Assembly: GCA_035463295.1 (NCBI GenBank)
Contig: DATHTK010000023.1
Coordinates: forward strand, 1,563 to 65,562
Length of the DNA stretch: 64,000 bases
Direction: 5' to 3'
Source of the DNA: Rubrobacteraceae bacterium
GTDB lineage: Bacteria; Actinomycetota; Rubrobacteria; Rubrobacterales; Rubrobacteraceae
Of this stretch, positions 3,130 to 31,666 are shown piece by piece. Below the pieces are notes generated by a model. That model was not told the DNA's origin, ran no database searches, and saw nothing but the letters and a program-made list of their open reading frames with translations. Positions within the stretch are counted from its first letter, which is position 1. Each line of letters opens with the position of its first letter. The position numbers and the translations under genes are program-made.

Positions 3130-3135
3130 GTGGCT

Positions 3136-4897: not shown

Positions 4898-5167
4898 CAT
4901 CTACCTGGGTGGCTAGATCCTTCTCAGCAGCACAAACCCCGATACGATCAATCCAGAGGCCGCGGAAGCGTGCTTCTCGCCGTGCTGCTGCACGCCTCGA
5001 CCAATCTGTTCGCCGTGTCGCCCGTGGTAGCCGAGGCCGGGGGCATTGCGCTCCCCCTGCTCGCGGCGGTGGCAAAATGGGTGCTGGTAGCCGTGATCGT
5101 GGTGTTGGCCGGGCCGGGCCTTGCGCACGGCTTGCGGCCAGAGGCTTTGCCAAGAACCGTAACCTAG
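4898..5167 (+). pseudogene. C-terminal remnant of a CPBP (CAAX/Abi-type) intramembrane protease
   Basis: The frame reads ...GSVLLAVLLHASTNLFAV... (the last conserved His-x-x-x-Asn helix of the CPBP family) followed by one more TM segment. The upstream catalytic EExxxR region is missing and there is no plausible full-length ORF. Confidence 0.45.
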
Positions 5168-5241
5168 AGTGCCCAGCCCCTATTCACTAACGTGCTCAGT
5201 AACGGGGTTCTACGAAGTCTGGGGGACTTTATCAGTGTCTC

Positions 5242-5997
5242 CTACTTGCGCCGTCCAAGCCGGAATGCCCTGGCCGACGCCGTGGCCAGGACCGCCGTAG
5301 CCCCCACCGCGGTACCCACGCGGGCCGTAACGGTGCGTCTCTCGTCGGCCGCAGTGGTGAGCAGACCCCACGCCGAAGATGCCGCGAGAGGGAGGTAGCC
5401 GCCTCGGCTCCGCCCTACGGCGGCGGCAAGCACACCGGTAGCACCGAGGGCCGCCAGAGTCGCACCCACGACGCTCGTTTTGGAGGTCGCGTCCGCCCCC
5501 AGGAGCTGGGTGCCGGCGGACAGATTCACGGTGGCGGCGAGGCCGGTCCAGCCGAGCAGGAGGCCGGTGCTGACCGAGGCGATGCTCTCTTTGTCGGACG
5601 GGATGCTCTGGATGCGCCGGTAGGCGACCCCGGTGAGGGCGACCGCAGCGGGCAGCAGAGCTGGGGTGTAGCCGAAGCGGTCCGACTGCGCCGCCACCGA
5701 CCAGGCGGTGTTGAGGGCGTAGGCGCCGGCCAGGGGCCAACCGGTCTTGCGGTTCTCCGGTAAGCGCGAGCGGCCCGTCAGGGCGGCTTGCGCCGCGTTA
5801 GCGACGATGCCGGCGAAGATCGGCGCCCACACGGCGAACGCGTACCCGGGTGGCGTGATCGCGGTGTCGTAGCGTTCGACGTTCTCCCGGGTCTTCAGCA
5901 CCAGCGGCCCGAGTGTGGGGACGCTCACCACGGCCGCCGCGGTGGTCCCCAGGGCGATCGACCGAGCAAGGTCGGAGGTGCGGCGGTCGGTCGGCAT
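5242..5997 (-). CDS. Polytopic membrane protein of uncertain function (weak resemblance to TspO/MBR-like Trp-rich proteins)
   Basis: Multiple hydrophobic segments and the motif PPGYAFAVWAPIFAG. ATG 5997 is preceded by GAGGAG at 9 nt. The longer ORF to 6105 has a non-membrane, poorly coding N-terminus. Confidence 0.55.
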   Translation of the reverse strand: MPTDRRTSDLARSIALGTTAAAVVSVPTLGPLVLKTRENVERYDTAITPPGYAFAVWAPIFAGIVANAAQAALTGRSRLPENRKTGWPLAGAYALNTAWSVAAQSDRFGYTPALLPAAVALTGVAYRRIQSIPSDKESIASVSTGLLLGWTGLAATVNLSAGTQLLGADATSKTSVVGATLAALGATGVLAAAVGRSRGGYLPLAASSAWGLLTTAADERRTVTARVGTAVGATAVLATASARAFRLGRRK

Positions 5998-6439
5998 GGC
6001 TCCACGCTCCTCGGTGTCGCTCGATACTGAAACGATGCTAGCATGAACGGTATGCCCCAGCCGAGCCGTGGCCACGGCCGCGGTCGGCTGCCCGTAGGGG
6101 GCCATCCACGCACGAAGCGTCTAGCGTTGGGCCCGGGGCTCTTGGTAGCTTCGGCCCTTCTGATCGCCTTTATTCACCCAACCTTCCGACTTGTTTAACT
6201 CTGGTCAGGAGCTTAGTGGTCTGCAGCCGCTAAGCTTCTAGGGCGCCGGTTATGGGGATCGCTCGCCAACCTCCTGCCGCTCTTCTACAGGGTTGGCTTG
6301 TTCTAGGCCTGCGACCCACCGGCGTCCGGCGAGCGGGGTGACTCAACAGAGGCGTGGATCACGGACTCAAAGTCGGATTGTCCTCCGCGCGCCACGACGA
6401 TGGTGGTGTTGGTAGCGAGCGCGAAGGAGGTCGCCAGAC

Positions 6440-7489
6440 ATGGAGGTAGTGATCGGCGTAGATCCCCACAAGGCAACGAACGTCGTCGCGGGGATCGACG
6501 AGCAAGGAGAATTGGTCGGGCAGGAGACTTTCCCGGCAAACCGGAAAGGACTACGGGCCCTACAGCGGTGGGCCAAACGCTTCCCGGAGCGCCGCTGGGC
6601 GGTGGAGGGCGCATGTGGTATCGGACGTCCGCTGGCACAGAAGCTCCTGGCTGCAGGCGAAAGCGTGGTCGACGTCCCGCCCAAGCTCTCGGCAAGGGTG
6701 AGGGTGCTCTCAACCGGCAACGCCCGAAAGAACGATGCGCTGGACGCTACCTTCACCGCCCTCGCCGCTCTTCGAAATGATCGGCTGAGTTCGGTCCAAC
6801 CTGAGAACGGTCCGCAAGGCCATGCCGAGATTTTGAGGCTACTAACCGAGAGGCGCGAGGACCTGCTCTGCGAACGTACCCGCGCCCTGAACCGCCTCCA
6901 CGTCCTGCTGCGAGACCTCCTCTCCGATCCTGTCAGGAAGCAACTCTCTACCAATGCTGCTGCCAAATTGTTGCGCCGTGCCAGACCCGAGCATCCGGCG
7001 GGACGACTCCGCAGACAGCTGGCCGTCGAGGTGGTACGAGATGTGCGCGCCTTGGACCGGCGGATAGCGGAACTCGACGAGCGTATCGGAGGGGAAGTAG
7101 AATCTTCCGGCACCATGCTCACCGAGATTTTCGGCGTCGGCCCAATCCTGGCCGCGAAGATCGTGGGAATAGTCGGCGACGTTTCGCGCTTCCCGAGCAA
7201 GGCTCACTTCGCTTCCTATGCAGGCGTGGCGCCGATTGAAGCTTCCAGCGGCGAGGTGGTCAGGCACAGGCTCTCGCTTGCCGGGAACCGCAAGCTCAAC
7301 CAGGTCATACACATGATTGCGGTGTGCCAGGCTCGCAGCGATCCTCGCGGCGGGGCGTATCATCGGAAGAAGCTAGCGGAGGGCAAGACCCGTAGGGAAG
7401 CGATGCGCTGCCTCAAGCGGCGCATCTCGGACATGGTGTTTAGGATACTGGTCGCGGATTCGCAGCTCGCTTCGCAAATGGTCTCTTGA
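6440..7489 (+). CDS. IS110-family transposase (DEDD N-terminal domain + Transposase_20 C-terminal domain)
   Basis: Typical N-terminus MEVVIGVDPHKATNVVAGIDEQGE, and a C-terminal FGVGPILAAKIVGIVGDVSRFPSKAHFASYAGVAPIEASSG...RLSLAGNRKLN. SD GAAGGAGG upstream. Confidence 0.93.
   Translation: MEVVIGVDPHKATNVVAGIDEQGELVGQETFPANRKGLRALQRWAKRFPERRWAVEGACGIGRPLAQKLLAAGESVVDVPPKLSARVRVLSTGNARKNDALDATFTALAALRNDRLSSVQPENGPQGHAEILRLLTERREDLLCERTRALNRLHVLLRDLLSDPVRKQLSTNAAAKLLRRARPEHPAGRLRRQLAVEVVRDVRALDRRIAELDERIGGEVESSGTMLTEIFGVGPILAAKIVGIVGDVSRFPSKAHFASYAGVAPIEASSGEVVRHRLSLAGNRKLNQVIHMIAVCQARSDPRGGAYHRKKLAEGKTRREAMRCLKRRISDMVFRILVADSQLASQMVS
6440..7489 (+). mobile_element. IS110-family insertion sequence (minimal extent = transposase ORF; true ends not determinable from one copy)
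   Basis: The transposase ORF is intact. IS110 elements generally lack clear terminal inverted repeats, so I did not call boundaries. Confidence 0.7.
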
Positions 7490-7910
7490 CACAGAGGAGC
7501 CTAGAAGACGAGTTCTCAGAAGTCTATATCGAGGATCTTGCATAGATCGGCCCGCCGGCCACCATGTGACCGCGGTAAGCCCTATCGTCTCCACGTGGCC
7601 GCCCACAATACGTAGCGGTGCCTCATGAACATTCACCAGAGTGCATAGGTGCGCTTGCCCGATCGCTAAGCCCTTGCCGACTCTAACTGCTGGGCACCGT
7701 CCCGCGTGAGCAGGACGCGGAATACCAGCTTGAGCGACGTGAATACTTGCACATTTCAACCGAGACACTGGTGGCACTCGAGAGCAGATCGAGGCCTCAC
7801 GGCGGATACTCGCGTTGTCGCGCGATGTCGGCTTCTAGTTCCGGGCCCGGTGGCCGGAGGTAGACGCGCGAGGAGCTCTACGAGGAGAGGCTAGGGCGGT
7901 ATCCGAAGCG

Positions 7911-8150
7911 GTGAGCCGCTCCTTCTTCGACACCAACGTGCTGGTCTGCCTCTTCGACAACCACGACCCCGAGAAGAAGATCGGAGCCCAGCGAGTCTTC
8001 GCCGAGGAGTCGGAGGGAGGTCGCGCCGTTCTGGGCATGCAGGTCCTGCAGGAGTACTGCTGGGCCGTGACGCGCAAACTGGAGAGTCCGCTATCTGAGG
8101 AGATGGCGGAGCAAAGGGTGCGCGACTTCTGCGTTCGCGAGGTCCCATAG
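7911..8150 (+). pseudogene. PIN-domain (VapC-type) toxin, truncated after about 79 codons
   Basis: N-terminus SFFDTNVLVCLFD (first acidic PIN motif). The ORF stops at about 60% of normal PIN length and downstream frames are broken. The upstream frame ends in a GTGA stop/start overlap with this gene but carries an in-frame TAG at 7861. Confidence 0.55.
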
Positions 8151-8552
8151 CGGTGAGGCCATTGAATGCACCTGCACCTTCCTGTGTCAACACGATCTCA
8201 CCACCAGCACGTTGACGCCCCGGCGCGCCCGCCGCCGTGGAGAAGGGCCCATGCGGTAGCCCGCGACACCGCGACCGGCCGGGCTTGCCGCCGGACACGT
8301 TTTCGGTCAGAATCCCTTGCTGGAGGAGTCCGAGGAGGGGTGAACCAACCTGATGCGTGACCGCGGAGCACCGGCCTTTCGGTCGTGTGACGGAGTACTG
8401 GAATCGGGAGGGGCCGGTCGCGGTGTCGCACTAGTGGTGTCGATAGATGCTATGACCAGGTTCCTGTCCTGGTGTGCTGTTATCGGGGTTGATCTGTTGG
8501 TCTTTCCGCAGAAACCGCTGCTCGCCGCCGCAAGCCACACCAGGCAGACGCC

Positions 8553-10580
8553 GTGAGCCTCATCGCTGGTATCGACGTCGGCGGCACTTTCACCGACGTC
8601 GCCGTGTACGACACTGAGACCGGGTCGGCACGGACTTCGAAGGTTTTCTCCACTCACAACCAGGCCGACGGCCTTCTGCGGGGGCTCCACCAGGTCGTGG
8701 AGATGGTGGGGCAGCTTGCGGCCGTCGTGCACGGTACGACGGTGGCGACCAACGCCATCATCGAACGCAAGGGCGCGAAGGCGGCGCTCGTCACTACCGC
8801 CGGTTTTCGAGATGTGCTGGAGCTTCGCCGGCGTGATCGGCCGGACGCTTACGGGCTTACCGGTGGATACCGCCCGTTGATTCCGCGGAGTCGCTGTGTC
8901 GAGCTGGGTGAGCGGCTCGACGCGAACGGCGACGTCGTAGCGGAGCTCGGCGTGGACGGCGTGCGTAGCGTCGTCAATCAACTCGAGGGGCTCGATGTCG
9001 AGTCAGTGGGCGTGTGCCTGCTCCACAGCTACGCCGACCCCGTGCACGAGAACAGGATCGCCGAGGCCCTGCGGGGCGCCTTGCCGGGCGTCCATCTGAG
9101 CGTCTCGAGCACCCTGGCTGCCGAGGCAGGGGAGTTCGAGCGCGCGTCTACGACGGCCATCAACGCCTTCGTCCACCCCCGCATGGTGGAGTATCTTCGT
9201 GAGGTGCGTCGGCGCCTCACCGAGGAAGACTTCGCGAGGGACGTATGGGTCATGCAGTCGAGCGGGGGGCTGATGCAGATCGACCGTGCAGCGGAGCAGC
9301 CTGTGCGTACGGTTCTCTCCGGTCCGGCAGCCGGCACAGTGGGCGCGGCGGAGCTCGCGGCGCTGGCTGGCATCGAGGATGTGATCTCCTGTGACATGGG
9401 AGGCACCAGCTTTGATGTGGCTCTCATTCCTGGAGGCATGCCGGCCCAGTCAACGGGGCGGCAGATCGCGTACGGCGTCCCGGTGCAGCTTCCGATGGTT
9501 GACATTCATACCATCGGAGCCGGAGGTGGCAGCATCGCCTGGATGGACCGCGGCGGAGTGCTGCAGGTCGGCCCCGAGTCCGCGGGCGCCGAGCCCGGCC
9601 CGGCGGCATACGGCAGGGGTGGGGAACGGCCCACCGTCACCGACGCCAATGCCGTGCTCGGCCGGCTGGACCCGCAGGCGCGACTCGGTACCGAAGAGGG
9701 GTTCCATATCGACGTTGCGGCGGCCGAGAGCGCTATCCGAAAGCAGATCTCCGACCCGCTCGGACTCAGCGTCACCGACGCGGCCCTGGGCATCATCCGG
9801 GTCGCGAACGTCAAGATGGCTGGCGCGATCCGGCGGGTCTCCGTCGACCGGGGCCATGACCCGCGAAGGTTCGCGCTCGTCGGGTTCGGCGGAGCGGGTC
9901 CCGCTCACATCGTCGAGTTGGCCGCGGAGATCGGATCGACGCGCGTGCTGATCCCTCCGCAGCCCGGCATCACCTCCGCCCTTGGTTGCTTGCTCGCCGA
10001 TGTCCGTCATGACTTCGTGCATGCCGTCAATACCGACGTGGACGCGGTAACAGCGGAGCAGGTCCGCAACGTCTTCGCGGCGCAACGAGAGCAGGGGGTG
10101 CGGATTCTTCTCCGGGACCAGTTCCCGGACGAGCGGATCGAAGTGCATCACTTCGCCGATATGGCCTACGCCAGGCAGTTGCACAACCTCTTGGTGCCGC
10201 TGTCAGACGCATCCGGAGAGTGGACCGGCAAACACCTCACGGAGGCCTTTCTGGAGCGCTACGGGGAGACTTACGGGGGTCTTCTACGGCGGGGAAGCGT
10301 GAAGCTCGTCAACCTCCGCACCGTGGTGGTCGGCAAGCGTGAGACGGTGCGCTTCTCGAGCGAACCAGCTGTCGAACACCACGAGCCTCGGCACCGGCCG
10401 GTGACATTCGTAGAGGGCGCGTACGAGACGCCCGTGGTGTCTAGATCGGCCTTGCGACCGGGCGAGCGATGGGAGGGGCCTGTGATCGTGGAGCAGCAGG
10501 ACACCACCACCATCGTCCCGCCCTCGGCGGTTGTCGAGGTGCATCCCACCGGCTCCCTCCTCGTGGAGGTGCAATCGTGA
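8553..10580 (+). CDS. hyuA: Hydantoinase/oxoprolinase family, A (HyuA-type, ATP-binding) subunit, copy 1
   Basis: N-terminal GIDVGGTFTDV, VHGTTVATNAIIERKG, DMGGTSFDV, GAGGGSIAW. 675 aa. Confidence 0.9.
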   Translation: MSLIAGIDVGGTFTDVAVYDTETGSARTSKVFSTHNQADGLLRGLHQVVEMVGQLAAVVHGTTVATNAIIERKGAKAALVTTAGFRDVLELRRRDRPDAYGLTGGYRPLIPRSRCVELGERLDANGDVVAELGVDGVRSVVNQLEGLDVESVGVCLLHSYADPVHENRIAEALRGALPGVHLSVSSTLAAEAGEFERASTTAINAFVHPRMVEYLREVRRRLTEEDFARDVWVMQSSGGLMQIDRAAEQPVRTVLSGPAAGTVGAAELAALAGIEDVISCDMGGTSFDVALIPGGMPAQSTGRQIAYGVPVQLPMVDIHTIGAGGGSIAWMDRGGVLQVGPESAGAEPGPAAYGRGGERPTVTDANAVLGRLDPQARLGTEEGFHIDVAAAESAIRKQISDPLGLSVTDAALGIIRVANVKMAGAIRRVSVDRGHDPRRFALVGFGGAGPAHIVELAAEIGSTRVLIPPQPGITSALGCLLADVRHDFVHAVNTDVDAVTAEQVRNVFAAQREQGVRILLRDQFPDERIEVHHFADMAYARQLHNLLVPLSDASGEWTGKHLTEAFLERYGETYGGLLRRGSVKLVNLRTVVVGKRETVRFSSEPAVEHHEPRHRPVTFVEGAYETPVVSRSALRPGERWEGPVIVEQQDTTTIVPPSAVVEVHPTGSLLVEVQS

Positions 10581-12256
10581 CCAGCGTGGACCCGACGACG
10601 CTCGCTGTCGTCCGCGGTCGGCTCGAGCAGACCACGGACGAGATGGATACCGTCTTCGAGCGCATGGCCTTCTCGCCGGTGATCTCCGATGCCTGGGATC
10701 GCGCGGACGGGATCTATCGTCCGGATAACGGCAGCATGGTCGTACAGGGCGAACGAGGTCTGCCAATTTTTGTCGGGACCATGCAATACGCAACGCGGGC
10801 CGTCATCGACCACGCCGGGAAGCCGCGGGCTGGCGACGTATTCATGATCAACGACCCGTACCTGGGCGGCACGCACATTATGGACGTGAAGATGGTGCGC
10901 CCGTTCTTCCACGACGGTGAGCTGTTTTGCTACCTGGCGAACACCGGTCACTGGCCGGACATCGGCGGTCGCGTTCCCGGTGGCTTCTCATCTGCCGCCA
11001 CCGAGGTCTACCAGGAGGGATTACGCGTCCCGCCGGTTCGACTGTTTTCCGGCGACCGGCTCAATGGCGACATACTCGCCATTCTTCAGGCCAACAGCCG
11101 CATCCCCGAAGACATCGAAGGCGACGTCCGCGCCCAGGCGACCGCCCTGCGGGTAGGTGAGGAACGGCTCGGCGAGTTGCTCGGCGAGTATGGAAAGGAA
11201 ACCGTGCTCGCGTGCATCGACGAGCTCGAGGTACGAGCCGAGCGGCAGATGAGCTCCCATCTCGATGAGGTGCCGGATGGCGCCTACCGCTTTGTGGAGG
11301 AGATGGACAACGACGGCATCGATGACGTGCCGCTGCGTATCGAGGTCGCCGTGACCGTTCGCGGTCAGCGGCTTACGCTGGACTTTACGGGTAGCTCCGG
11401 GCCGTGTGCGGGCCCGATGAACAGCGTGTACGCCGCGACCGTGTCCTCGTGTGCCGTGGCGCTTAAGCACATCTGGCCCGACGTAGCGCTCAACTCGGGC
11501 ATGTTCGTGCCTCTGGAGTTTGTGATCCCCGAGACAACCTTCCTCAACGCAGCCGTTCCCCAACCCGTCGCTGGCTGCGCCGCGGAGACCTCACAGCGCA
11601 TAATCACCGCGGTAATGGGCTGTCTCGGGCAGGCGGTCCCCGATCGCGTCCCGGCGGGATCGTGTGCAACGATCAACAACCTGTCGATGGGCGGCGTCGA
11701 CGCCGGTGGAGACCCCTACGTTATGTACGTGTTCCTCGGGGGTGGCTACGGAGGTCATGCGTCGGGCGACGGCCTGACCAACGGGTGCTCTCTTATGAGC
11801 GTTGCCCGGACGCAGTCGCTGGAGGTTCTCGAGCAGCGCTACCCCATCCGCTTCAACCGCTACGCGGTGCGAGAGGGCTCCGCAGGGTCCGGGCGCTACC
11901 GAGGCGGCTTCGGGGTCGAGTTCGAGTTCACGTTCACCGGCCGCAGCGGACGTGCGTCGCTTCTGGGCGACCAGGCGAAGAGCCCGCCTAAAGGCGTAGG
12001 AGGCGGTAGCAACGGAGCGCCGGCGAGCCCTTACTTCGTGCTCGACGGGGAGCACACTGTCTTACCCATGATCTCCAAGGGTGAGAATATACCCTTGCGC
12101 CCCGGAGACGTCGTCTGCCTGCGGACGGCCGGTGGAGGGGGGTACGGACCTCCCTCACAACGCGACCCTCTGCTCGTGCGCCGGGACGTCGACGACGGAT
12201 ACATCACCGAAGCCGAAGCGTCCGAGCTCTACGGGAGGGTCGAGAGTCATGAATGA
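10577..12256 (+). CDS. hyuB: Hydantoinase B/oxoprolinase family, B (HyuB-type) subunit, copy 1
   Basis: DPTTLAVVRGRLEQTTDEMD start region, NDPYLGGTHIMD motif, C-terminal GGGGYGPP. GTG 10577 overlaps the hyuA stop (GTGA). The ORF-track start at 10469 would overlap hyuA by 112 nt. Confidence 0.9.
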   Translation: MTSVDPTTLAVVRGRLEQTTDEMDTVFERMAFSPVISDAWDRADGIYRPDNGSMVVQGERGLPIFVGTMQYATRAVIDHAGKPRAGDVFMINDPYLGGTHIMDVKMVRPFFHDGELFCYLANTGHWPDIGGRVPGGFSSAATEVYQEGLRVPPVRLFSGDRLNGDILAILQANSRIPEDIEGDVRAQATALRVGEERLGELLGEYGKETVLACIDELEVRAERQMSSHLDEVPDGAYRFVEEMDNDGIDDVPLRIEVAVTVRGQRLTLDFTGSSGPCAGPMNSVYAATVSSCAVALKHIWPDVALNSGMFVPLEFVIPETTFLNAAVPQPVAGCAAETSQRIITAVMGCLGQAVPDRVPAGSCATINNLSMGGVDAGGDPYVMYVFLGGGYGGHASGDGLTNGCSLMSVARTQSLEVLEQRYPIRFNRYAVREGSAGSGRYRGGFGVEFEFTFTGRSGRASLLGDQAKSPPKGVGGGSNGAPASPYFVLDGEHTVLPMISKGENIPLRPGDVVCLRTAGGGGYGPPSQRDPLLVRRDVDDGYITEAEASELYGRVESHE

Positions 12257-13625
12257 TTCGGCACTGCTCGCCCCTCCAGGTTCGCATCTGCCCGTCGTGT
12301 CGCGCGGAGAGGGTGTGTGGCTCGTTGACGAGGCGGGTCGTCGCTATCTCGACGGCAGCTCCGGCGCCGTCGTGACCAGCCTCGGACACGGCAACGCCGA
12401 GATCGCCGCGGCGCTGCAGCAGCAGGCCGTCACGGTGGCCTTCGCGCATCGGACGCAGTTCCGTAACCGTCCCGCCGAGGACCTCGCCGCCGCGCTCGTG
12501 GACCTTGCCCCGCCTGCCCTCGCCCGTGCCGCGCTGCTCTCGTCGGGCTCGGAAGCCAACGAGCTCGCCATGAAGCTCGCCATTCGCTTCTGGCAGGAGC
12601 AGGGGCAACCGCGCAAACACGGCTTCGTTTCACGCTGGACCAGCTATCACGGGTCCACGCTAGGAGCACTCTCCGCGACCGGACACCCGGCCCGCCGAAG
12701 AGCGTTCGCGGACCTGCTGCACCCCTTCCCTCGGGTCTCTCCTCCTTACTGTCTGCGGTGCCCCGCGGGTGCGTCACCGGAGAGCTGCGCCGAGGCGTGC
12801 CTGGACGAGCTCGAAGTTGCGATACAGCGCGAGGGCCCGGAGCGGCTCGCCGCGTTCATCGCTGAGCCGGTGGTAGGCGCCGCGGCCGGTGTACTGGTAC
12901 CCCCTTCCGGCTATCACGAGCGGGTGCGTGAGCTCTGCGATCGGTACGAGCTACTGTGGATCGCCGATGAGGTCATGTCCGGCTGCGGACGCACCGGACG
13001 CTGGCTGGCGGTCGAGCACTGGGACGCCGTTCCCGACCTGGTGACCCTTGGCAAGGGCCTGACAGGCGGCTACGCCCCGCTGTCAGCGGTCCTTTGCACA
13101 TCAAAGGTCGCCGCAGCTCTCGGGTCGGGTGAGCTAGGCGCCGCCTCCGCTCACACGTACACCAACACGCCGTTGTCCGCGGCCGTCGGGCTTGCGGCCG
13201 TGGAGGTGATAAAGCGACAGGATCTGGTCGCGCGTGCCTCCGCCCTCGGCGCGGTGCTCCACGAGGCACTAGCCTCGCTCGGCCGGGAGATCGAGATGAT
13301 CGGGGACGTCCGAGGGCTGGGTCTTCTGCAAGGCGTCGAGCTGGTCGCTGATCGGCGGACGCTCGATCCTTTCGACCCCGAGCTTCGCGTAACCGCCCGC
13401 CTCGTGGCGGCCGCTCGCCATCGCGGCTTGCTTGTGTATCCGGCGGCTTTGGGAATCAACGGGCAGTCGGGCGACGCAATAGTCGTGGCACCGCCCTTGA
13501 TCATCAGCGAGCCCGAGATCGGTGAACTCGTCGCCCGTCTTCGGGAGGCGCTGCTCGATGTTGGCCGCCTCCTTAACGAGGAGCCACCGTCTGTGCAAGA
13601 TGGCAACAGTCGAGAGGAGGAGTAA
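12249..13625 (+). CDS. Class-III (omega-type) PLP-dependent aminotransferase
   Basis: SGSEANELAMKLA, ADEVMSGCGRTG, and PLP-lysine region TLGKGLTGGY. ATG 12249 overlaps the hyuB stop (ATGAATGA). Confidence 0.9.
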   Translation: MNDSALLAPPGSHLPVVSRGEGVWLVDEAGRRYLDGSSGAVVTSLGHGNAEIAAALQQQAVTVAFAHRTQFRNRPAEDLAAALVDLAPPALARAALLSSGSEANELAMKLAIRFWQEQGQPRKHGFVSRWTSYHGSTLGALSATGHPARRRAFADLLHPFPRVSPPYCLRCPAGASPESCAEACLDELEVAIQREGPERLAAFIAEPVVGAAAGVLVPPSGYHERVRELCDRYELLWIADEVMSGCGRTGRWLAVEHWDAVPDLVTLGKGLTGGYAPLSAVLCTSKVAAALGSGELGAASAHTYTNTPLSAAVGLAAVEVIKRQDLVARASALGAVLHEALASLGREIEMIGDVRGLGLLQGVELVADRRTLDPFDPELRVTARLVAAARHRGLLVYPAALGINGQSGDAIVVAPPLIISEPEIGELVARLREALLDVGRLLNEEPPSVQDGNSREEE

Positions 13626-13629
13626 GGAT

Positions 13630-14961
13630 ATGGAACAGGTTGGCGGGGAAGACATAGGTCAGCAATCGTCAGTCAGGAAGGTGGCGGTCGCCAGCTTCGT
13701 GGGCACGGCCCTCGAGTGGTACGACTACTTCATCTACGGCACGGCCGCGGCGCTGGTCTTTCCGGCGCTGTTTTTCCCGGGGTTCTCGACGTTCGCCGGG
13801 ACCCTGGCGTCCTTCGCTACATTCGGGGTCGGGTTCTTCGCTCGTCCGGTAGGAGCGGTGTTCTTCGGCCACTATGGGGACAGAGTGGGTCGCAAGGCGG
13901 TCCTGGTCACCACGCTCCTGATCATGGGCGTCGCCACTTTCCTTATCGGCGTCCTCCCGCCGTACGAAGCGCTCGGGGTACTGGCCCCGGTGGCTCTCGT
14001 CGTACTGCGTCTCTTGCAGGGTTTCGCCGTAGGTGGAGAGTGGGGCGGCGCGGTCCTGATGGCGGTGGAGCATTCCCCCTCCGAGTCCCGGGGATTCTTC
14101 GGGAGCTGGCCGCAGATGGGCGCCCCGGCGGGGCTCGTGCTCTCGACGGCCGCATTCACCCCGTTTGCGGCTCTCCCGGAGGAGCAGTTCCTCTCCTGGG
14201 GCTGGCGTATCCCGTTCCTCCTGAGCATCTTGCTCATAGCGGTCGGGCTGTACATCCGACTCAGGATCACCGAGTCTCCCATCTTCTCTCAGGTCAGGGA
14301 GACACATACCGAGGCGCGCGCGCCGATCATCGACGCTGTGCGCACCTACCCGAAGAATATCGCCCTGGGTACGGGAGCCCGCATAAGCATCGACGTCGCC
14401 TTCTACATATTCGCGGTCTACGCGCTCTCCTACGTCACTGAGCAGCTCGGGATGCCCAGCAGTACGGTCTTGATCGGGCTCCTTATCGCGGGCGTCATCG
14501 AGATCTTCACCATACCCTTTTTCGGATCGCTTTCGGATCGTCTGGGCCAGCGTCAGGTCTTTATCGGGGGCGCGGTATTCCTGGCTTTGTTCGCCCTTCC
14601 TTTCTTCTGGATGCTCGACACGGAGGTCAGCATCATCATCTGGCTCGCCCTGGTACTGGGCCTCAGCGTCGGCCACGCCGCAGCTTACGGCCCGATGGCG
14701 AGTTTCATGGCCAGGCTCTTCGGAGCACGCGTCCGCTACAGCGGAATCTCCTTGAGCTACCAGCTCGCCGGGATACTCGGAGGTGCCCTGGCACCGCTGA
14801 TCGCGACCTTGCTCTACGCGGCGATCGAAGGGCCGGCACTCATAGCGCTCTACATGGCCGCGCTGTGCGGCCTCACCGTAGTATGCGTCTACCTGGCCTC
14901 GGATTTCCCAGGGGACGACCCCGACGAGGGGCGGCTGGCCGCCGAAGAGCGGGTGGGGTAG
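13630..14961 (+). CDS. MFS transporter, metabolite:H+ symporter (MHS; ProP/KgtP/ShiA-like) family
   Basis: FVGTALEWYDYFIYG N-terminal signature, GHYGDRVGRK loop, 12 predicted TM segments. ATG 13630 lies 4 nt after the aminotransferase stop, with AGGAGGAG inside the upstream gene's end. Confidence 0.88.
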   Translation: MEQVGGEDIGQQSSVRKVAVASFVGTALEWYDYFIYGTAAALVFPALFFPGFSTFAGTLASFATFGVGFFARPVGAVFFGHYGDRVGRKAVLVTTLLIMGVATFLIGVLPPYEALGVLAPVALVVLRLLQGFAVGGEWGGAVLMAVEHSPSESRGFFGSWPQMGAPAGLVLSTAAFTPFAALPEEQFLSWGWRIPFLLSILLIAVGLYIRLRITESPIFSQVRETHTEARAPIIDAVRTYPKNIALGTGARISIDVAFYIFAVYALSYVTEQLGMPSSTVLIGLLIAGVIEIFTIPFFGSLSDRLGQRQVFIGGAVFLALFALPFFWMLDTEVSIIIWLALVLGLSVGHAAAYGPMASFMARLFGARVRYSGISLSYQLAGILGGALAPLIATLLYAAIEGPALIALYMAALCGLTVVCVYLASDFPGDDPDEGRLAAEERVG

Positions 14962-15006
14962 ACATGAGCGTCGGTTCGGGACGAATAGGGTAGAGAGACA
15001 GCCACC

Positions 15007-17091
15007 ATGGACAGACGCTACCGTGTTGGAGTAGATATCGGCGGGACGTTCACGGATCTGGTGCTGATCGACGACGCAACGGGCGAGCGGTCCATCGGCA
15101 AGGTCCTGACCACGCCGCAGGACCCCTCGGACGCCGTCGAAAAAGGGTTGGCCGAGCTTCTCGAGAGAGAAGGCGTCGAGGCTTCGCAGATCAAGACCAT
15201 AGTCCACGGCACGACCCTGGTGACGAACGCCCTGATCGAGCGCAAAGGAGCCACGACGGCTCTGCTGACGACGCAAGGGTTCCGGGACGCGATCTCGATC
15301 GGCACCGAGCACCGCTACGACATGTACGACATCTATATCGAGAAGCCCGAGCCTCTGGTGCCGCGAAACCTGCGCTACGGTGTGCGCGAGCGCGTGCTCG
15401 ACGATGGTTCGGTCGCCATCGAACTTGATGAGGAACAGCTGAGGCAGGTCGTCGCGGAGCTGCGCGAGCGGGAAGTAGAGGCCGTCGCAGTGAGCTTCTT
15501 GCACTCTTTTCGCAATTCCACCCACGAGCAGAGGGTCGCCCGGGTTCTCGCGGAGGAGGCGCCGGGGATCACCGTCTCGCTCTCTTCGGACGTTGCGCCG
15601 GAGATCCGGGAGTACGAGCGCACCTCGACGACGATCGCCAACGTCTACGTCAGGCCGCTCGTCGAGCGCTACCTGCGGGTGCTGGAGGAGCGGCTGACAA
15701 ACCTCGGGTTCGGGGGCTCTCTCTACATCATGCTCTCGAACGGAGGCACGGCTAGCGTCGAGACGGCCCGCGAGTTCCCGATCCGGCTCCTCGAGTCCGG
15801 CCCGGCGGCGGGTGCGCTTGCCGCCGCTTTTTACGGCCTGAAGACAGGGTTCTCCGCGGTACTATCCTTCGATATGGGCGGGACGACGGCCAAGGCGTGC
15901 CTGATCGAGGGCGGAGAGCCGCTCACGGCTAGCGAGTTCGAGGTCGCCCGGGTCTACCGGTTCAAGAAAGGCTCGGGGCTGCCGGTCAAGACCTCGGTGA
16001 TCGAGATGATCGAGATCGGCGCCGGTGGCGGCTCTATCGCTCGCGTGGGCCCGCTCGGTTTGCCGAAGGTCGGCCCCGAGAGCGCCGGCGCCGACCCTGG
16101 TCCGGCGTGCTACGGGCGCGGCGGAAGCGAGCCCACGGTAACCGACGCGGACCTGATCCTTGGCTACCTCGACCCTGACTTCTTCCTGGGCGGCAGGATG
16201 CACCTCGACCGCGACGCGGCCTTGAAAGCTATCGAGGAGGGGATAGCCCGTCCCCTCGGCCTCGACCCCATCGAAGCCGCCTGGGGTATCCACCAGGTCG
16301 TCAACGAGAACATGGCCAACGCGGCCAGGATCCACGCCATCGAGCGCGGCAAGGACCCGCGGGCTTATCCTCTGTTTGCCTTCGGCGGCGCCGGACCCGT
16401 GCACGCCTATAGCGTCGCCCGCGCCCTCGGTGTCCCGGGTTTCGTAGCTCCGCTCGGGGCGGGCGCGACCTCGGCGTTCGGCTTCCTGTGCGCCCCGCTC
16501 TCCTTCGACTTCGTGCGCAGCCTCTACGGCCGACTGGACGAGCTCGACTGGTCCGTGGTGAACGGGGCGCTGGAGGAGATGGAGAAGGAGGGACGCGACC
16601 TCCTGCGCGCCTCCGGGGTCGCGGACGCCGACATCCGGGTGCGCCGGCTCTGTGATATGCGCTATACGGGCCAGGGACACGAGGTGACCGTGGAACTGCC
16701 CGTCGGGGCTCTGGGCCCGGACGACACCGGCCGGCTGGCGTCGCTCTACAGCAAGGAGTACCGGAGGCTGTACAACAGGGAGGGTCCGGACGTGCCGCTC
16801 GAGGCGCTCACCTGGCGCCTCGAGGTCGCCGCACCGCCCCCCGAGATACGGCTCGAGGCAGGGGAGGAGAGAGAAGCTGCCTCCGGGGGGCGGAAAGGCG
16901 CGCGTGAGATCTACCTTCCCGAGGAGAAAGGCTTCCGGGAGGTGCCGGTCTACGACCGCTACCGCCTCGGCCCCGGGGCGGCCTTCGAGGGACCGGCGGT
17001 TATAGAGGAGAAGGAGTCTACAGTCATCCTCGGTCCGGAGGGGCGGGCAAAGATCGACGCCGCTCGGAACCTGATCGTGAAGTGGTCATGA
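15007..17091 (+). CDS. hyuA: Hydantoinase/oxoprolinase family, A subunit, copy 2
   Basis: GVDIGGTFTDL, VHGTTLVTNALIERKG, DMGGTTAKA, GAGGGSIAR. 694 aa. Clearly diverged from copy 1. Confidence 0.9.
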   Translation: MDRRYRVGVDIGGTFTDLVLIDDATGERSIGKVLTTPQDPSDAVEKGLAELLEREGVEASQIKTIVHGTTLVTNALIERKGATTALLTTQGFRDAISIGTEHRYDMYDIYIEKPEPLVPRNLRYGVRERVLDDGSVAIELDEEQLRQVVAELREREVEAVAVSFLHSFRNSTHEQRVARVLAEEAPGITVSLSSDVAPEIREYERTSTTIANVYVRPLVERYLRVLEERLTNLGFGGSLYIMLSNGGTASVETAREFPIRLLESGPAAGALAAAFYGLKTGFSAVLSFDMGGTTAKACLIEGGEPLTASEFEVARVYRFKKGSGLPVKTSVIEMIEIGAGGGSIARVGPLGLPKVGPESAGADPGPACYGRGGSEPTVTDADLILGYLDPDFFLGGRMHLDRDAALKAIEEGIARPLGLDPIEAAWGIHQVVNENMANAARIHAIERGKDPRAYPLFAFGGAGPVHAYSVARALGVPGFVAPLGAGATSAFGFLCAPLSFDFVRSLYGRLDELDWSVVNGALEEMEKEGRDLLRASGVADADIRVRRLCDMRYTGQGHEVTVELPVGALGPDDTGRLASLYSKEYRRLYNREGPDVPLEALTWRLEVAAPPPEIRLEAGEEREAASGGRKGAREIYLPEEKGFREVPVYDRYRLGPGAAFEGPAVIEEKESTVILGPEGRAKIDAARNLIVKWS

Positions 17092-18815
17092 GCGAGACGC
17101 GACTGGACCCGGTCCTTCTGGAGGTCCTCTGGAACCGCCTGGTCTCTGTGGTCGAGGAGCAGGCGCGGGCCCTGATGCGCACCTCCTTCACCAGCGTGGT
17201 GCGCGAGGCGGGCGACCTCTCGGCGGGTCTCTTCGACCGGCGGGGGCGGATGGTCGCGCAGGCCGTCACCGGCACCCCCGGCCACGTCAACGCGATGGCG
17301 ACGAGCATGCATCACTTTCTGCGAGAGGTCCCGGCCGAGACCCTGCGGCCCGGTGACGTGCTTGTCACCAACCATCCGTGGCAGACCTCCGGCCACCTCA
17401 ACGACTTCACCGTGATCACCCCGATCTTCCGCGGCGGCGAGATAGTCGCGTACTTCGGCAACTGCTGCCATGCTCTCGACGTCGGAGGCCGGGGCCTGGG
17501 CGCTGACGCCCGGCAGGTCTACGAGGAGGGGCTCTTCGTCCCCGTCACCCGCCTGTTCGGTCGCGGCGAGCCAAACGACGAGCTCTTCCGTCTCCTCCGC
17601 GCCAACGTGCGCACGCCGTTCGAGGTCGTCGGCGACCTCTACGCTCAGGCCGCAAGCAACGACGTCGGCGGCGCGCGGCTCATCGAGATGCTGGAGGAGT
17701 TCGACCTTCCAGATATCGAGGGGCTCTCCGACGAGATCTGCACCCGCTCCGAAAGGGCGATGCGGGAGGCGATCGGGGCTCTGCCCGACGGGATCTACGA
17801 GAACGAGACGTACACCGACGGCTTCGACGACCCGATAAAGCTATCCGTCGCCGTCCGCGTCGAGGGCGAAGAGATCCACCTGGACTACGAGGGCTCCTCG
17901 CCGCAGAGCGATAGAGGTATCAACGTCGTCCTCAACTACACCGTCGCGTACTCCACCTTCGGGGTGAAGTGCGCGATCAGCCCGGAGGTGCCGAATAACG
18001 ATGGCAGCTTCCGCCCGATGCATGTAACAGCGCCCGAGGGGTGCATCCTCAACGCCGCGCACCCGGCACCGGTCGGCGCCCGGCACATCATAGGGCACTT
18101 TCTGCCGGGACTGATCCACGGCGCACTCGCGCAAGCCGTCCCGGACAAGGTGCTGACTCAAGGGGCCGACAGCCTCTGGAACACCCAGATCAGTGGCCAC
18201 CGTGACGACGGAGAGCCCTTTACCTACGTGTTTTTCTCCGGGGGCGGCATGGGAGCGAGTTCCCGAAACGACGGCCTCTCCGCAACGGCGTTTCCAAGCG
18301 GTGTCCGCGGCGTGCCGGCTGAGGTTATCGAGAGCATATCGCCGGTGATCATGCACAAGAGGGAGCTGCGCGCTGATTCTGAGGGAGCGGGCAGACGCCG
18401 GGGAGGTTTCGGCCAGGAGATGGAGATAGGGGTGCGCGGCAACTCGCCATGGACCCTCTCCGCCATGTACGATCGCACACGATGCCCGGCGCGGGGTCTG
18501 CAGGGTGGATGCTCCGGCGGTACCGGAGCCGTGCGCACCGCGAGCGGGGACCTCCTGCACCCCAAGCGCCAGCAACGTATCGATGGCGGCGAGCGGGTGA
18601 TTCTGAGCCTGCCGGGCGGCGGAGGCTTCGGGGCAGCCGCGGAGCGCGAGCCGGAGGCGGTCGCACACGACGTTACGGACGGGCTCGTCTCGGCCGAGCG
18701 CGCTCGCGATGTCTACAAGGTCGCCCTCCACGGGGAGCGCAGCGGTCGGTATACCGTCGATGCGGACGAGACTGCCCGTTTGCGCGCCGAGGCACCTCCT
18801 GCTGGAGCGTCCTGA
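17088..18815 (+). CDS. hyuB: Hydantoinase B/oxoprolinase family, B subunit, copy 2
   Basis: DPVLLEVLWNRLVSVVEEQA start region, NHPWQTSGHLND motif, C-terminal LPGGGGFG. ATG 17088 overlaps the stop of the upstream gene (ATGA). GTG 17082 is an alternative start. Confidence 0.9.
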   Translation: MSETRLDPVLLEVLWNRLVSVVEEQARALMRTSFTSVVREAGDLSAGLFDRRGRMVAQAVTGTPGHVNAMATSMHHFLREVPAETLRPGDVLVTNHPWQTSGHLNDFTVITPIFRGGEIVAYFGNCCHALDVGGRGLGADARQVYEEGLFVPVTRLFGRGEPNDELFRLLRANVRTPFEVVGDLYAQAASNDVGGARLIEMLEEFDLPDIEGLSDEICTRSERAMREAIGALPDGIYENETYTDGFDDPIKLSVAVRVEGEEIHLDYEGSSPQSDRGINVVLNYTVAYSTFGVKCAISPEVPNNDGSFRPMHVTAPEGCILNAAHPAPVGARHIIGHFLPGLIHGALAQAVPDKVLTQGADSLWNTQISGHRDDGEPFTYVFFSGGGMGASSRNDGLSATAFPSGVRGVPAEVIESISPVIMHKRELRADSEGAGRRRGGFGQEMEIGVRGNSPWTLSAMYDRTRCPARGLQGGCSGGTGAVRTASGDLLHPKRQQRIDGGERVILSLPGGGGFGAAAEREPEAVAHDVTDGLVSAERARDVYKVALHGERSGRYTVDADETARLRAEAPPAGAS

Positions 18816-18999: not shown

Positions 19000-19743
19000 A
19001 TGAAGTACGGGCTATGCGCCGGGTTGCTGGCGGCGATGGCGGGCGGGTACCTCCTGCGCCGCCAGGGGCTGCGCTGGGGCGCCACCGACGAGGAGGTGAA
19101 CAAACCGTTGCCGGGGGATGGAGTCGTAGCCCATCCCATGGTGGAGACGACCCATGCGATCACCATCAGCGTTCCGCCCAGAGAGGTCTGGCCTTGGCTG
19201 GTGCAGATGGGTTACTACAAGGCCGGCTGGTACACAGACCCCTCCTGGTGGGACAGACCCGCCGACGAGTACCTCAAGTCTCTGAGGCGGGAGGAGGCCG
19301 AGGGATCGGGCGTGGGCGATCGGAAAGCCCCGAGCTCAGAGAGGATCGTCCCGGAGTTCCAGGACCTCGAGGAAGGCGACACCATCCTCGACGGCCCACC
19401 CGGCACGGCCTTCTTCACGGTGCACCTTCTTGAACCTGACCGTGCTCTTGTCCTCTACCCTGATTCGCACCTGCGCTTCGCGGTGCCGAGGCCCATCCGC
19501 GAGAACCCCCGCTACGGCATCTTCGGTGAGTTCAGCTGGGCCTTCGTTCTGGAAGAGAAGGGTAAAAGGAGCACCCGGTTGATATTGAGGACTAGGGCCA
19601 ACTATGGTCCGCGCCTTTACCGGACTTTGAGCAAGCCTTTTATTCTGGCAGGCGGGGAGACTCTAGTCGCTCGCAAGATGCTCTACGGCATCAAGGGACG
19701 GGCCGAACGCGGCGGTCAGGTCAGGGAACCGGCGATCGGCTAG
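19000..19743 (+). CDS. SRPBCC-superfamily (START/cyclase-like fold) protein with N-terminal hydrophobic segment
   Basis: Good coding character. HAITISVPPREVWPWLVQMGYYKAGWY resembles the first strands/helix of SRPBCC proteins. SD GAGAGGA upstream. Confidence 0.5.
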   Translation: MKYGLCAGLLAAMAGGYLLRRQGLRWGATDEEVNKPLPGDGVVAHPMVETTHAITISVPPREVWPWLVQMGYYKAGWYTDPSWWDRPADEYLKSLRREEAEGSGVGDRKAPSSERIVPEFQDLEEGDTILDGPPGTAFFTVHLLEPDRALVLYPDSHLRFAVPRPIRENPRYGIFGEFSWAFVLEEKGKRSTRLILRTRANYGPRLYRTLSKPFILAGGETLVARKMLYGIKGRAERGGQVREPAIG

Positions 19744-19785
19744 ACTCGGATGCTAGAGGGTGAGGAGTTGCGAAAGGAGATTTCT

Positions 19786-20556
19786 GTGCAAGACACACCC
19801 ATAAACATCGATTACCTTGACGCGGAAGACCTGCACCTGCGGATAGCCCTGGGAGCCTGCCGCTTCAGGGCCGAACCCGGCGAGAGAGAAGCCTGGATAA
19901 CCGGCGCGGTTCACGATCCGACCGGCAAGCGTTCCCCCAGGATAGTCGAGGAAGGAGGAACGGTCCGGATCACCGAAACGGAACCCTCCTTCGAGCAGAT
20001 CCCCGCCGTCTTCGGCGGCGTCCCCCGCTACGATATAAGGTTCGGCAAGGCACGGCCCTTCGCTCTGACGATCGAGACCGGAGCAAGCGAGTTCGACCTC
20101 GACCTCGGAGGGGTGCCCCTGCGCAGCGTGACTGTCAGGCAGGGGGCGGGCAAGTTCGAACTCGACTTCTCGGCCCCCAACCCCCATCCTATGGAACTGC
20201 TCGAGGTCTCCAGCGGGGCGGCTGGCATAGAACTGGAGAACCTCGCGAACGCCAACTTCTCCGAGATGCGCCTCTCCGGAGGAGCGGCGGGCTACGAACT
20301 GGACTTCCGCGGCACGCTCGCGAGAGACGCCGAGGCGAAGATCGAAGCCGGCCTGAGTACGGTCGAGATAAAGATCCCCGCTTCCACAGCGGCGATGATA
20401 GTTGCCGAGACGACTCTAGGCAGCGTCGACGTGAGCGACGGTTTTACCAAGAGGGAGGGCGCCTTCTGGACCGAAGCAGGGCTGAGAGAGGACAGGCCAC
20501 TCTTGACGATCCGCGCCGGCGTGAGGCTGGGTTCCCTTCAACTCAGAGCTCTGTGA
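19786..20556 (+). CDS. Toastrack-type beta-repeat protein (DUF2154/DUF4097, LiaF C-terminal-like)
   Basis: Repeated G-x-x-E-L/I-D/E-x strands (GASEFDLDLGG, GAGKFELDF, GAAGIELEN, GAAGYELDF, LSTVEIKIP). GTG 19786 sits 6 nt behind AAGGAG. ATG 19750 is an alternative start. Confidence 0.5.
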   Translation: MQDTPINIDYLDAEDLHLRIALGACRFRAEPGEREAWITGAVHDPTGKRSPRIVEEGGTVRITETEPSFEQIPAVFGGVPRYDIRFGKARPFALTIETGASEFDLDLGGVPLRSVTVRQGAGKFELDFSAPNPHPMELLEVSSGAAGIELENLANANFSEMRLSGGAAGYELDFRGTLARDAEAKIEAGLSTVEIKIPASTAAMIVAETTLGSVDVSDGFTKREGAFWTEAGLREDRPLLTIRAGVRLGSLQLRAL

Positions 20557-20649: not shown

Positions 20650-21273
20650 CTAGGCGGGATCTCGAGCCCCGAGACCGGCGAAGATGTGTTCTGCTAGGGC
20701 GTCCGCGAAATCCTCGTCTAGCGGAGCGTGAGCGACGAGCAGGCGATAGTAGATCGGCCCGTAAAGGATGTCTACAGCCACCTCCGGATCAAGGTCCTCC
20801 CTCAACTCGCCACGCTCGATGCCAAGCTCGAGGATCTCCCTGGCCTCCGCCCGCCTTACCGAAAGCCAGCGCGAACGCAGGGCCTCGGCGAGCTCCGTAT
20901 CAGCCTGACCCTCGGCGATCAGGGCCCCCACCGTCCGCCCCATCTTGCCGCTGAACGCCTCGGTGAGCCTGCGCATGTGCAGCCGGATGTCTTCCCACGC
21001 ATGACCCGTGTGCGGGAAGGGAACCTCGGACGAGACAGTCGAGAGGAAACCATCCATTACTACCGCCGCCTTGTTGGGCCACCAGCGGTAGACCGTGGCC
21101 TTGGAGACCCCGGCGCGCTCCGCTATGGCTTCTACCGTCGTGGCGGCGAACCCCTCCTTCTCGAGTAACTTGTTGGCAGCCTGCAAAATCGCACGGCGCG
21201 CCTTCTCGCTGCGAGGGCGTCCCGGTGGCCGGGTCCCCGAATGGTTCGTCGTCGCTTGTTCCACGTCCCACAT
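20650..21273 (-). CDS. TetR/AcrR-family transcriptional regulator
   Basis: HTH region RRAILQAANKLLEKEGFAATTVEAIAERAGVSKATVYRWWPNKAAV. Confidence 0.92.
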   Translation of the reverse strand: MWDVEQATTNHSGTRPPGRPRSEKARRAILQAANKLLEKEGFAATTVEAIAERAGVSKATVYRWWPNKAAVVMDGFLSTVSSEVPFPHTGHAWEDIRLHMRRLTEAFSGKMGRTVGALIAEGQADTELAEALRSRWLSVRRAEAREILELGIERGELREDLDPEVAVDILYGPIYYRLLVAHAPLDEDFADALAEHIFAGLGARDPA

Positions 21274-25953: not shown

Positions 25954-25986
25954 GATGTCGCGATGGCGCCAGGGGGAGCCGGACGG

Positions 25987-26207: not shown

Positions 26208-26209
26208 CT

Positions 26210-27094: not shown

Positions 27095-27133
27095 CACAAC
27101 GTGTGACGGAGGGCTAGCGAGAGGAGCCGCACC

Positions 27134-30779: not shown

Positions 30780-30786
30780 GCTACGC

Positions 30787-31656: not shown

Positions 31657-31666
31657 CTCGATCTCC

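Follow-up and report, generated by a model that had tools for sequence, protein, structure and literature searches.

Two diverged HyuA/HyuB pairs around an aminotransferase and a transporter in a Rubrobacteraceae bacterium: a six-gene block of probably two separable modules

Introduction

Only a handful of ATP-dependent lactamases have known substrates. These enzymes are few and are sought for the mild hydrolysis of stable 5- to 7-membered lactams, such as nylon monomers. In Pseudomonas jessenii GO3, the caprolactam cluster encodes the lactamase CapAB, a pyruvate-dependent omega-aminotransferase (PjAT) and a 6-oxohexanoate dehydrogenase (PMC6061476). Caprolactamase has a two-site mechanism and an (alpha-beta)2 assembly with a tunnel between the sites. 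The ASKHA-type ATP motifs DxGGTxTD, DMGGT and GxxPGP were defined for CapA, and the metal ligands of CapB (D41, H99, D102 and H124) are essential by mutagenesis (PMC8453981). The valerolactam/caprolactam hydrolase of Pseudomonas putida KT2440 is OplBA, whose aminotransferase is encoded elsewhere (bioRxiv 10.1101/2021.12.09.472016; PMC8453981). OplBA is 80-86% identical to CapAB (PMC8453981). Here, we analyze a block of six genes, with two HyuA/HyuB pairs, a class-III aminotransferase (AT) and a transporter of the major facilitator superfamily (MFS), in a stretch of 64,000 nucleotides of a Rubrobacteraceae bacterium (GenBank assembly GCA_035463295.1, contig DATHTK010000023.1, positions 1,563 to 65,562), hereafter the window.

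A sequence-only reading of this block had invoked the Pseudomonas precedent of a lactamase followed by an omega-aminotransferase, and the published cluster agrees with it (PMC6061476). It had also proposed that the two ring-opening enzymes share the transporter and the aminotransferase as one integrated system. The comparison with related loci led us to a different reading, which we hold with moderate confidence: the block is a composite of two separable modules, A1-B1-AT-MFS (module 1) and A2-B2 (module 2, or pair 2), which are adjacent in one Rubrobacter sub-lineage and have been inherited together.

Results

The genes were taken from the open reading frames (ORFs) derived here and from independent calls on the source contig (ENA ERZ27272648 k141_661993, 74 kb, soil metagenome). 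The two sets coincide in the same six genes, all on the + strand and in the order HyuA1-HyuB1-AT-MFS-HyuA2-HyuB2. The first pair is formed by HyuA1 (8553-10580, 675 aa), a predicted ATP-binding large subunit of ASKHA type, and HyuB1 (10577-12256, 559 aa), a predicted metal-dependent hydrolytic subunit. These are followed by a class-III, omega-type aminotransferase dependent on pyridoxal phosphate (PLP; 12249-13625, 458 aa) and by a transporter of the metabolite/H+ symporter (MHS) type, presumed to be an importer (13630-14961, 443 aa). The second pair consists of the ATP-binding subunit HyuA2 (15007-17091, 694 aa) and the hydrolytic subunit HyuB2 (17088-18815, 575 aa). All six are long ORFs whose family matches have E-values far beyond chance.

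The gene order, strand and coordinates of the sequence-only reading are confirmed by both sets of calls, its family assignments by very strong Pfam matches for all six genes, and its five junctions, exactly, by direct reading of the sequence. HyuA1 stops and HyuB1 starts in a GTGA overlap (10577-10580), the HyuB1 stop and the AT start share the 8 nt ATGAATGA (12249-12256), and the HyuA2 stop and HyuB2 start share ATGA (17088-17091). Only 4 nt (GGAT, 13626-13629) separate the AT and MFS genes and 45 nt (14962-15006) the MFS and HyuA2 genes. With one strand and overlaps or short gaps throughout, the packing is indeed operon-like. No terminator-like site was predicted in the intergenic gaps, which is compatible with a single transcript; the predicted sites all fall within genes, in a number expected by chance. 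Internal promoters were likewise predicted at chance level, none of them in the gaps. We take the six genes as a real catabolic block that is probably co-transcribed.

Both A subunits contain the Pfam domains Hydant_A_N, Hydantoinase_A and Hydant_A_C (E-values of the central domain 2e-99 for A1 and 2e-87 for A2), and both B subunits the Hydantoinase_B domain (1e-163 for B1 and 2e-154 for B2), all exceeding the gathering scores. The ATP motifs are intact in A1 (DVGGTFTD at 8-15, DMGGT at 281-285 and GAEPGP at 345-350) and in A2 (DIGGTFTD at 10-17, DMGGT at 289-293 and GADPGP at 361-366). Aligned to CapB, the metal ligands are D41/H100/D103/H125 in B1 and D43/H103/D106/H128 in B2, and this Asp/His/Asp/His set is invariant across all aligned relatives of both subunits. 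Chain A of the N-methylhydantoinase structure (PDB 7hk5) has a Gln at the position of CapB His124, where CapB, B1, B2 and their relatives keep the His; this may be an alignment artefact or a real difference in the metal site. Matches of A2 residues 30-71 to polyubiquitin were rejected as an artefact, because their significance arises from summing the repeats (per-domain E about 7 per repeat).

The identity between A1 and A2 is 37% and that between B1 and B2 is 33%, so that the pairs are not the product of a recent duplication, as the sequence-only reading had also held. The characterized enzymes used for comparison were caprolactamase (PDB 6yra), N-methylhydantoinase (7hk5) and the acetone and acetophenone carboxylases, a set with no characterized 5-oxoprolinase. 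Identity to CapB is 33% for B1 and 30% for B2, and identity to N-methylhydantoinase is 32% and 31%, respectively. CapB and N-methylhydantoinase are as distant from each other as B1 and B2 are from either. Among PDB entries, A1 scored 426 bits against 7hk5 and 374 bits against 6yra_A, with carboxylases at 243 bits or less (243 and 225). For B1, the carboxylases reached 115 and 83 bits versus 237 for the hydrolase. N-methylhydantoinase ranks first or shares the first rank among the PDB matches of A1, A2 and B2, and both pairs score much higher, two to three times overall, against the two hydrolases than against the carboxylases. The NCBIfam equivalogs of CapA and CapB (NF050156 and NF050157, cut-off 1000 bits) gave 506.5 bits for A1, 568.5 for A2, 308.5 for B1 and 222.1 for B2, i.e. 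22-57% of the cut-off. A published lactamase/oxoprolinase discriminator, Lys40 of CapA, was not used, since its numbering did not map onto the alignment of the PDB sequence. The sequence-only reading had suggested placing the pairs against characterized members. On these scores the pairs fall nearer the hydrolases than the carboxylases, and neither is classed as a carboxylase or as an orthologue or equivalog of caprolactamase.

At the positions of the CapB pocket, the residues hardly vary inside the B1 clade or inside the B2 clade and differ from one clade to the other. Most of them also differ from CapB, although individual columns are uncertain in an alignment of 30-33% identity. In the same alignment, both positions of the CapB vicinal disulfide (Cys410-Cys411) are gaps in B1 and B2. 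The clade-specific pocket residues, together with the 33% identity of B1 and B2, place the pairs in two distinct clades within the ATP-dependent lactamase family. Both clades have about 30-33% identity to any characterized member, and their substrates are most likely different.

Module 1 is found well beyond the Rubrobacter-like bacteria. In cultured actinomycetes, the B orthologues are 64-72% and the A orthologues 52-56% identical to B1 and A1. The cluster is IclR-A-B-MFS-AT in Saccharopolyspora pogona, in Rhodococcus koreensis (with a glutamate dehydrogenase) and in Arthrobacter sp. AP024630 (with RidA and a second aminotransferase), and IclR-SSF-A-B-AT in Qaidamihabitans albus. The IclR proteins of these four clusters are mutually orthologous (50-63% identity). 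The same functional set occurs in an alphaproteobacterium: a plasmid of Rhizobium sp. Q54 (2045-11030) carries TRAP DctPQM genes, a divergent IclR gene, HyuA, a HyuB that is 48% identical to B1 and a HemL-like class-III aminotransferase. The aminotransferases are HemL-like in three of the actinomycete clusters and in Rhizobium and PRK06917-like in the window and in Qaidamihabitans. The independent recruitment of a class-III PLP enzyme from two subfamilies is the best support for the view that the ring-opened product carries an amino group to be transferred. No second HyuAB pair was found in any of the cultured-organism orthologues of module 1 examined, and literature searches on IclR/HyuAB/transporter/AT clusters found nothing. 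By its gene content, module 1 appears as a conserved unit across phyla, made of a transporter, HyuAB and a class-III PLP enzyme, mostly with IclR. The scheme of import, ring opening and transamination put forward in the sequence-only reading is in this way supported for pair 1, whose B1 orthologues repeatedly have a transporter gene and a class-III PLP enzyme gene as neighbors.

More distant homologues of A1B1 (about 50%) adjoin a 6-hydroxynicotinate reductase on plasmids of Pseudosulfitobacter (1-8677), Sagittula stellata (1-9677) and Neorhizobium (1241-8701). The first two, which are Roseobacter plasmids, also encode a ferredoxin-NADP reductase and a molybdenum hydroxylase of xanthine-dehydrogenase type. 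Such a gene context points to an aerobic pathway of nicotinate type that includes an ATP-dependent lactamase step. It is a lead to carboxylated piperidone or pyridone lactams and not evidence for the window locus.

Module 2, on the other hand, is found in other company. Homologues of B2 from soil metagenomes fall into more than 120 clusters (79-92% identity), a Rubrobacter metagenome-assembled genome (MAG) also carries one, and A2 orthologues (77-92%) occur both with and without module 1. In two of the compared loci, L025 and L026, orthologues of pair 2 with about 80% identity are accompanied by neither module 1 nor an aminotransferase. L025 (6750-18459) encodes an M24 peptidase, A2-like and B2-like proteins (77-81% to A2/B2), a ProP-like MHS transporter, an amidohydrolase that resembles Xaa-Pro dipeptidase, a HyuAB pair of a third kind (658 and 512 aa) and a MOSC protein. 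As pure speculation, cyclic amides or cyclic dipeptides that contain proline could be processed by this cluster. L026 encodes a GntR regulator, an enolase-superfamily protein, A2-like and B2-like proteins and a protein like 3-hydroxyisobutyrate dehydrogenase. The homologues on proteobacterial plasmids (50-55%) lie with DUF4286 and MFS genes or with oxidoreductase and GntR genes, and no aminotransferase was found near them. Its occurrence in other contexts without module 1 or an aminotransferase marks pair 2 as a putatively autonomous unit, and the aminotransferase is assigned to pair 1.

The Rubrobacter-like relatives allow a direct comparison of the layouts. The loci (contigs or genome regions labeled L002, L003, L024 and so on; L028 is L024) were gathered through the aminotransferase in genomes, through the transporter in metagenomes and by exact-protein look-ups of B1 and B2 homologues, and the six proteins were mapped onto them. 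The closest genome-derived loci, in a Rubrobacter sp. MAG (L003) and in an unclassified Actinomycetota MAG (L002), show 87-93% protein identity, as do the B1 orthologues of Rubrobacter-like contigs. All six genes in the same order are found in the window and in at least four other metagenome contigs (L024, L027 and L107/L108), and two pairs also occur together in the different cluster of L025; the layout is not as unusual as the sequence-only reading had assumed. Between the window and L024/L027, the six proteins are 88-93% identical and the DNA about 89%, and in L107/L108 the B2 protein (P0126) is 91% identical. The DNA similarity to L024/L027 extends from about 8269/8526 to 18793, some 20 nt short of the B2 stop, between unrelated flanks.

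Other relatives carry module 1 alone or in part. L003 and L029 have A1-B1-AT-MFS with nothing related downstream (for 4.8 kb after the MFS gene and 2.7 kb, respectively), and L030, which is cut at its 5' end, has AT-MFS with nothing related in the following 1.2 kb. In these three close relatives of the window, pair 2 was not found after the MFS gene, and this, together with the pair 2 orthologues (about 80%) and homologues (50-55%) that occur elsewhere without any aminotransferase, speaks against an integrated system with shared transporter and aminotransferase. The similarity of the window to L003 stops 15 nt past the MFS stop, inside the 45-nt spacer. L002 has A1-B1-AT-MFS on a contig that ends in the MFS gene. 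The order is MFS-A1-B1, with neither aminotransferase nor pair 2, in L018 and L031 (the latter contig ends within A1), and A1-B1-MFS-SSF, with no aminotransferase, in L019. In L032 and L033, B2 and A2 on the minus strand face MFS-A1 on the plus strand. The MFS orthologues (76-93%) always accompany A1B1, in three gene orders.

The aminotransferase matches Pfam Aminotran_3 (PF00202, E 3e-91) and scores 529.1 bits, with a cut-off of 535, against NCBIfam PRK06917, a family with no assigned substrate. In the PDB, it scores highest against 3i4j, 6io1 and omega-transaminases, among them 6g4b (255 bits), which we take to be the P. jessenii aminotransferase. It contains the motif DEVMSGCGRTG (240-250) and a GKG motif with K269, presumed to be the PLP lysine, and is assigned as a class-III enzyme of omega-transaminase type. 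An alpha-amino-epsilon-caprolactam racemase is not favored, as the racemase 2zuk ranks about 60th with 176 bits versus 294 for the best transaminase. The transporter matches Sugar_tr and MFS_1 above their cut-offs. Its best NCBIfam model by far is the metabolite/H+ symporter TIGR00883 (424.7 bits, cut-off 443.45), followed by ShiA, ProP and TcuC.

Within the block, there is no carbamoylase, amidase, aldehyde dehydrogenase or regulator, as the sequence-only reading had noted; in the orthologous clusters, an IclR gene is conserved. The larger ORFs from 19 to 50 kb, scanned with Pfam, include a single regulator, a divergent TetR gene (20650-21273), and neither an aldehyde dehydrogenase nor an amidase or IclR. 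When the IclR proteins of those clusters were searched by tblastn against the whole window, no match was better than E = 0.05, i.e. there was no trace of an IclR relic.

Upstream of A1 lies a non-coding stretch of 178 nt (8268-8445, + strand), a possible promoter or leader. It is conserved only in six-gene contigs (L027 303-480, 86%; L024 615-795, 73%, with a 25-nt internal duplication) and is not present upstream of A1 in L002, L003 and L029. Its folding has a minimum free energy z-score of -2.78, and with 1 compensatory pair among three sequences the covariation is uninformative. A riboswitch or other known RNA was rejected, as Rfam gave no match there and only a sub-threshold small RNA match inside B1. 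An ORF of 67 aa (8353-8556) that overlaps the A1 start was considered as an extra subunit and rejected. It does not evolve like a coding region: its translation is about 55% identical to L027/L107 (by eye) though the DNA is about 86% identical, and it is missing in L024, L002, L003 and L029.

Transposase genes are found upstream of the block in several contigs. In the window, an IS110-family transposase (6440-7489, + strand; DEDD_Tnp_IS110 and Transposase_20) lies about 1 kb upstream. L107/L108 carry a DDE_3 transposase (L107 539-1024, - strand), and L002 an ORF (475-957, - strand) that is IS630-like by reading of its translation with no family search. The unrelated flanks of the different contigs place the block in a variable, possibly mobile region.

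Just downstream of B2, two ORFs of 247 and 268 aa (19000-20556, + strand) have no Pfam match and lie beyond the conserved part that the window shares with the other six-gene contigs. Further on, a probable sugar-acid catabolic cluster (24475-31848) is unrelated to the six-gene block. It encodes a four-carbon acid sugar kinase-like protein (SBD_N/NBD_C), a 3-hydroxyisobutyrate-dehydrogenase-like protein, an SDR protein, a protein of the galactarate/altronate dehydratase family and, on the minus strand, a DHDPS-family protein. At 933 aa, the dehydratase is unusually long, and its Pfam matches reach only to about residue 562, which leaves the final ~370 residues unmatched.

Discussion

The two-module reading suggests the following working of the block. 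The MHS-type proton symporter would import a cyclic amide. HyuA1 would spend ATP to activate the ring as a phospho-lactim (lactim phosphate), and HyuB1 would hydrolyze the activated ring at its Asp/His/Asp/His metal site, both steps being modeled on caprolactamase. Subsequently, the class-III aminotransferase would take the amino group from the resulting amino acid to give an oxo-acid. A2-B2 would open a different ring compound, for which neither module 1 nor the aminotransferase would be needed. MHS and DctP-type TRAP carriers take up organic acids. By analogy with the MHS, SSF or TRAP carriers of the relatives, the compound imported by module 1 probably carries a carboxylate. The joint inheritance of the two modules is indicated by the similar degree of divergence of all six proteins.

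Several observations weigh against this reading. The aminotransferase is missing in two close relatives of module 1, L018 (MFS-A-B) and L019 (A-B-MFS-SSF), and no aldehyde dehydrogenase was linked to HyuAB in any cluster examined. The mapped positions of the CapB pocket offer, in a low-identity alignment, no cationic residue in B1 for a carboxylated substrate. Pair 2 adjoins module 1 in two architectures, co-directional and divergent (L032/L033), which could point to a functional link that is underrated when the modules are taken as independent. Function assigned by analogy has also failed in earlier cases: E. coli that expressed the HyuAB of the actinobacterium Gulosibacter showed no degradation of caprolactam (PMC9477822), and OplBA was inactive in the same host (PMC8453981).

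The two architectures bear on the alternative of a single integrated pathway, with both pairs acting on one family of imported compounds and using the MHS transporter and the aminotransferase in common. Such a pathway could involve two sequential ring openings or two stereoisomers or homologues. The tight packing is in its favor, with no terminator-like site in the 45-nt gap before A2, as are the similar divergence of all six proteins (88-93%), the conservation of the six-gene layout at about 89% nucleotide identity in L024/L027 between unrelated flanks, with the same order in L107/L108, and the position of pair 2 beside MFS-A1 in the divergent L032/L033. The two architectures belong, however, to related genomes and may reflect shared ancestry and a local inversion rather than independent selection. 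Moreover, L003, L029 and L030 keep module 1 with no pair 2, orthologues of pair 2 occur without module 1 or any aminotransferase, and those of module 1 in cultured organisms have no second pair. We regard the integrated pathway as unlikely. A related proposal is that the B1 clade, with a carboxylate-type transporter, IclR and a class-III enzyme, represents a widespread, unrecognized pathway for a natural carboxylated lactam to which A2B2 is functionally coupled in the Rubrobacter lineage, one candidate substrate being a piperidone or pyridone carboxylate as in the breakdown of nicotinate-type N-heterocycles. If so, A2B2 would open a second ring or the other stereoisomer or homologue, and the block would be a two-lactamase pathway for one compound family; this is an improbable reading.

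The superfamily offers three other functions. Pair 2, or both pairs, may be plain bacterial 5-oxoprolinases that convert pyroglutamate to glutamate, with the aminotransferase and the transporter as loosely related neighbors. The family includes such enzymes, the great abundance of B2-like genes in varied contexts of soil metagenomes would suit a common metabolite, MHS carriers move zwitterions such as proline, and a glutamate dehydrogenase lies beside module 1 in R. koreensis. Glutamate, however, needs no class-III aminotransferase, yet module 1 recruits two subfamilies of it, and two clades with 33% identity would hardly share a substrate in one operon, which makes this assignment quite improbable. 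For hydantoinases or N-methylhydantoinases, which would yield N-carbamoyl amino acids in creatinine or hydantoin catabolism, the rank of 7hk5 as best or joint-best PDB match for A1, A2 and B2 and the label N-methylhydantoinase B given by JGI to homologues are countered by an identity to 7hk5 of 31-32%, equal to that to CapB. In the tables of Pfam, NCBIfam and annotation results for the window and the related loci, neither pair has a carbamoylase, N-carbamoylsarcosine amidase or creatinine deaminase as a neighbor, and an N-carbamoyl product is not an aminotransferase substrate. We give this function very little weight. Least credible are acetone/acetophenone-type carboxylases acting on a ketone or aldehyde that the aminotransferase makes from an imported amine. 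They belong to the same superfamily, an aminotransferase ahead of a step that consumes a ketone makes chemical sense, and caprolactamase itself requires bicarbonate (PMC8453981). Nevertheless, the carboxylase structures score far lower (115/83 versus 237 bits for B1; 243/225 versus 374-426 for A1), the NCBIfam Apc models reach 100-328 bits with cut-offs of 1250-1500, and B1 and B2 have 559 and 575 aa versus 684-776 aa in carboxylases. There is no gene for a small extra subunit, the 67-aa ORF not being coding-like, and the position of CapB D41 is occupied by Asp, not Glu.

With two separable modules as the preferred reading, the most useful outcome is the recognition of the IclR/transporter/HyuAB/class-III AT cluster conserved across phyla. 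It occurs in cultivable strains of Rhodococcus, Arthrobacter, Saccharopolyspora and Rhizobium, which makes the question of its substrate experimentally tractable.

Comparison with known systems

The block resembles the P. jessenii cluster in that genes of a two-subunit HyuA/HyuB-type lactamase are clustered with a class-III aminotransferase. The ATP motifs and the Asp/His/Asp/His site are conserved, and the same logic from lactam to omega-amino acid and oxo-acid may apply. Unlike that cluster, the window has a dedicated MHS transporter and a second HyuAB pair and lacks an aldehyde dehydrogenase. Identity to CapB is only 33% for B1 and 30% for B2, which have different pocket residues and no vicinal Cys pair. 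The genes of the window also run A then B with overlapping codons, whereas capB precedes capA, with a spacer of 36 bp, in the expression construct described for P. jessenii (PMC8453981).

In the OplBA system, an ATP-dependent lactamase of the HyuAB type likewise feeds an omega-amino acid to a class-III aminotransferase. That aminotransferase is not clustered, whereas the one in the window lies within the block. OplBA is under a neighboring dedicated regulator, whereas the window has no linked regulator and the orthologous clusters use IclR. Given its similarity to CapAB, OplBA is equally distant from both pairs of the window.

N-methylhydantoinase (PDB 7hk5/9h03) and the 5-substituted hydantoinase HyuAB of Pseudomonas sp. 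NS671 share the superfamily and the two-domain logic. The former is a fused A-B chain of 1288 aa, whereas the genes of the window are separate, have no carbamoylase partner and encode proteins 31-32% identical to it. The IclR/HyuAB/transporter/AT clusters of cultured bacteria have the same functions as module 1. They differ by the presence of IclR, the absence of a second pair, the order A-B-MFS-AT instead of A-B-AT-MFS and, in most of them, a HemL-like rather than a PRK06917-like enzyme. The block is no new type of system and resolves no long-standing question. It would work like the CapAB-PjAT and OplBA lactamase systems and stands outside their orthologous groups.

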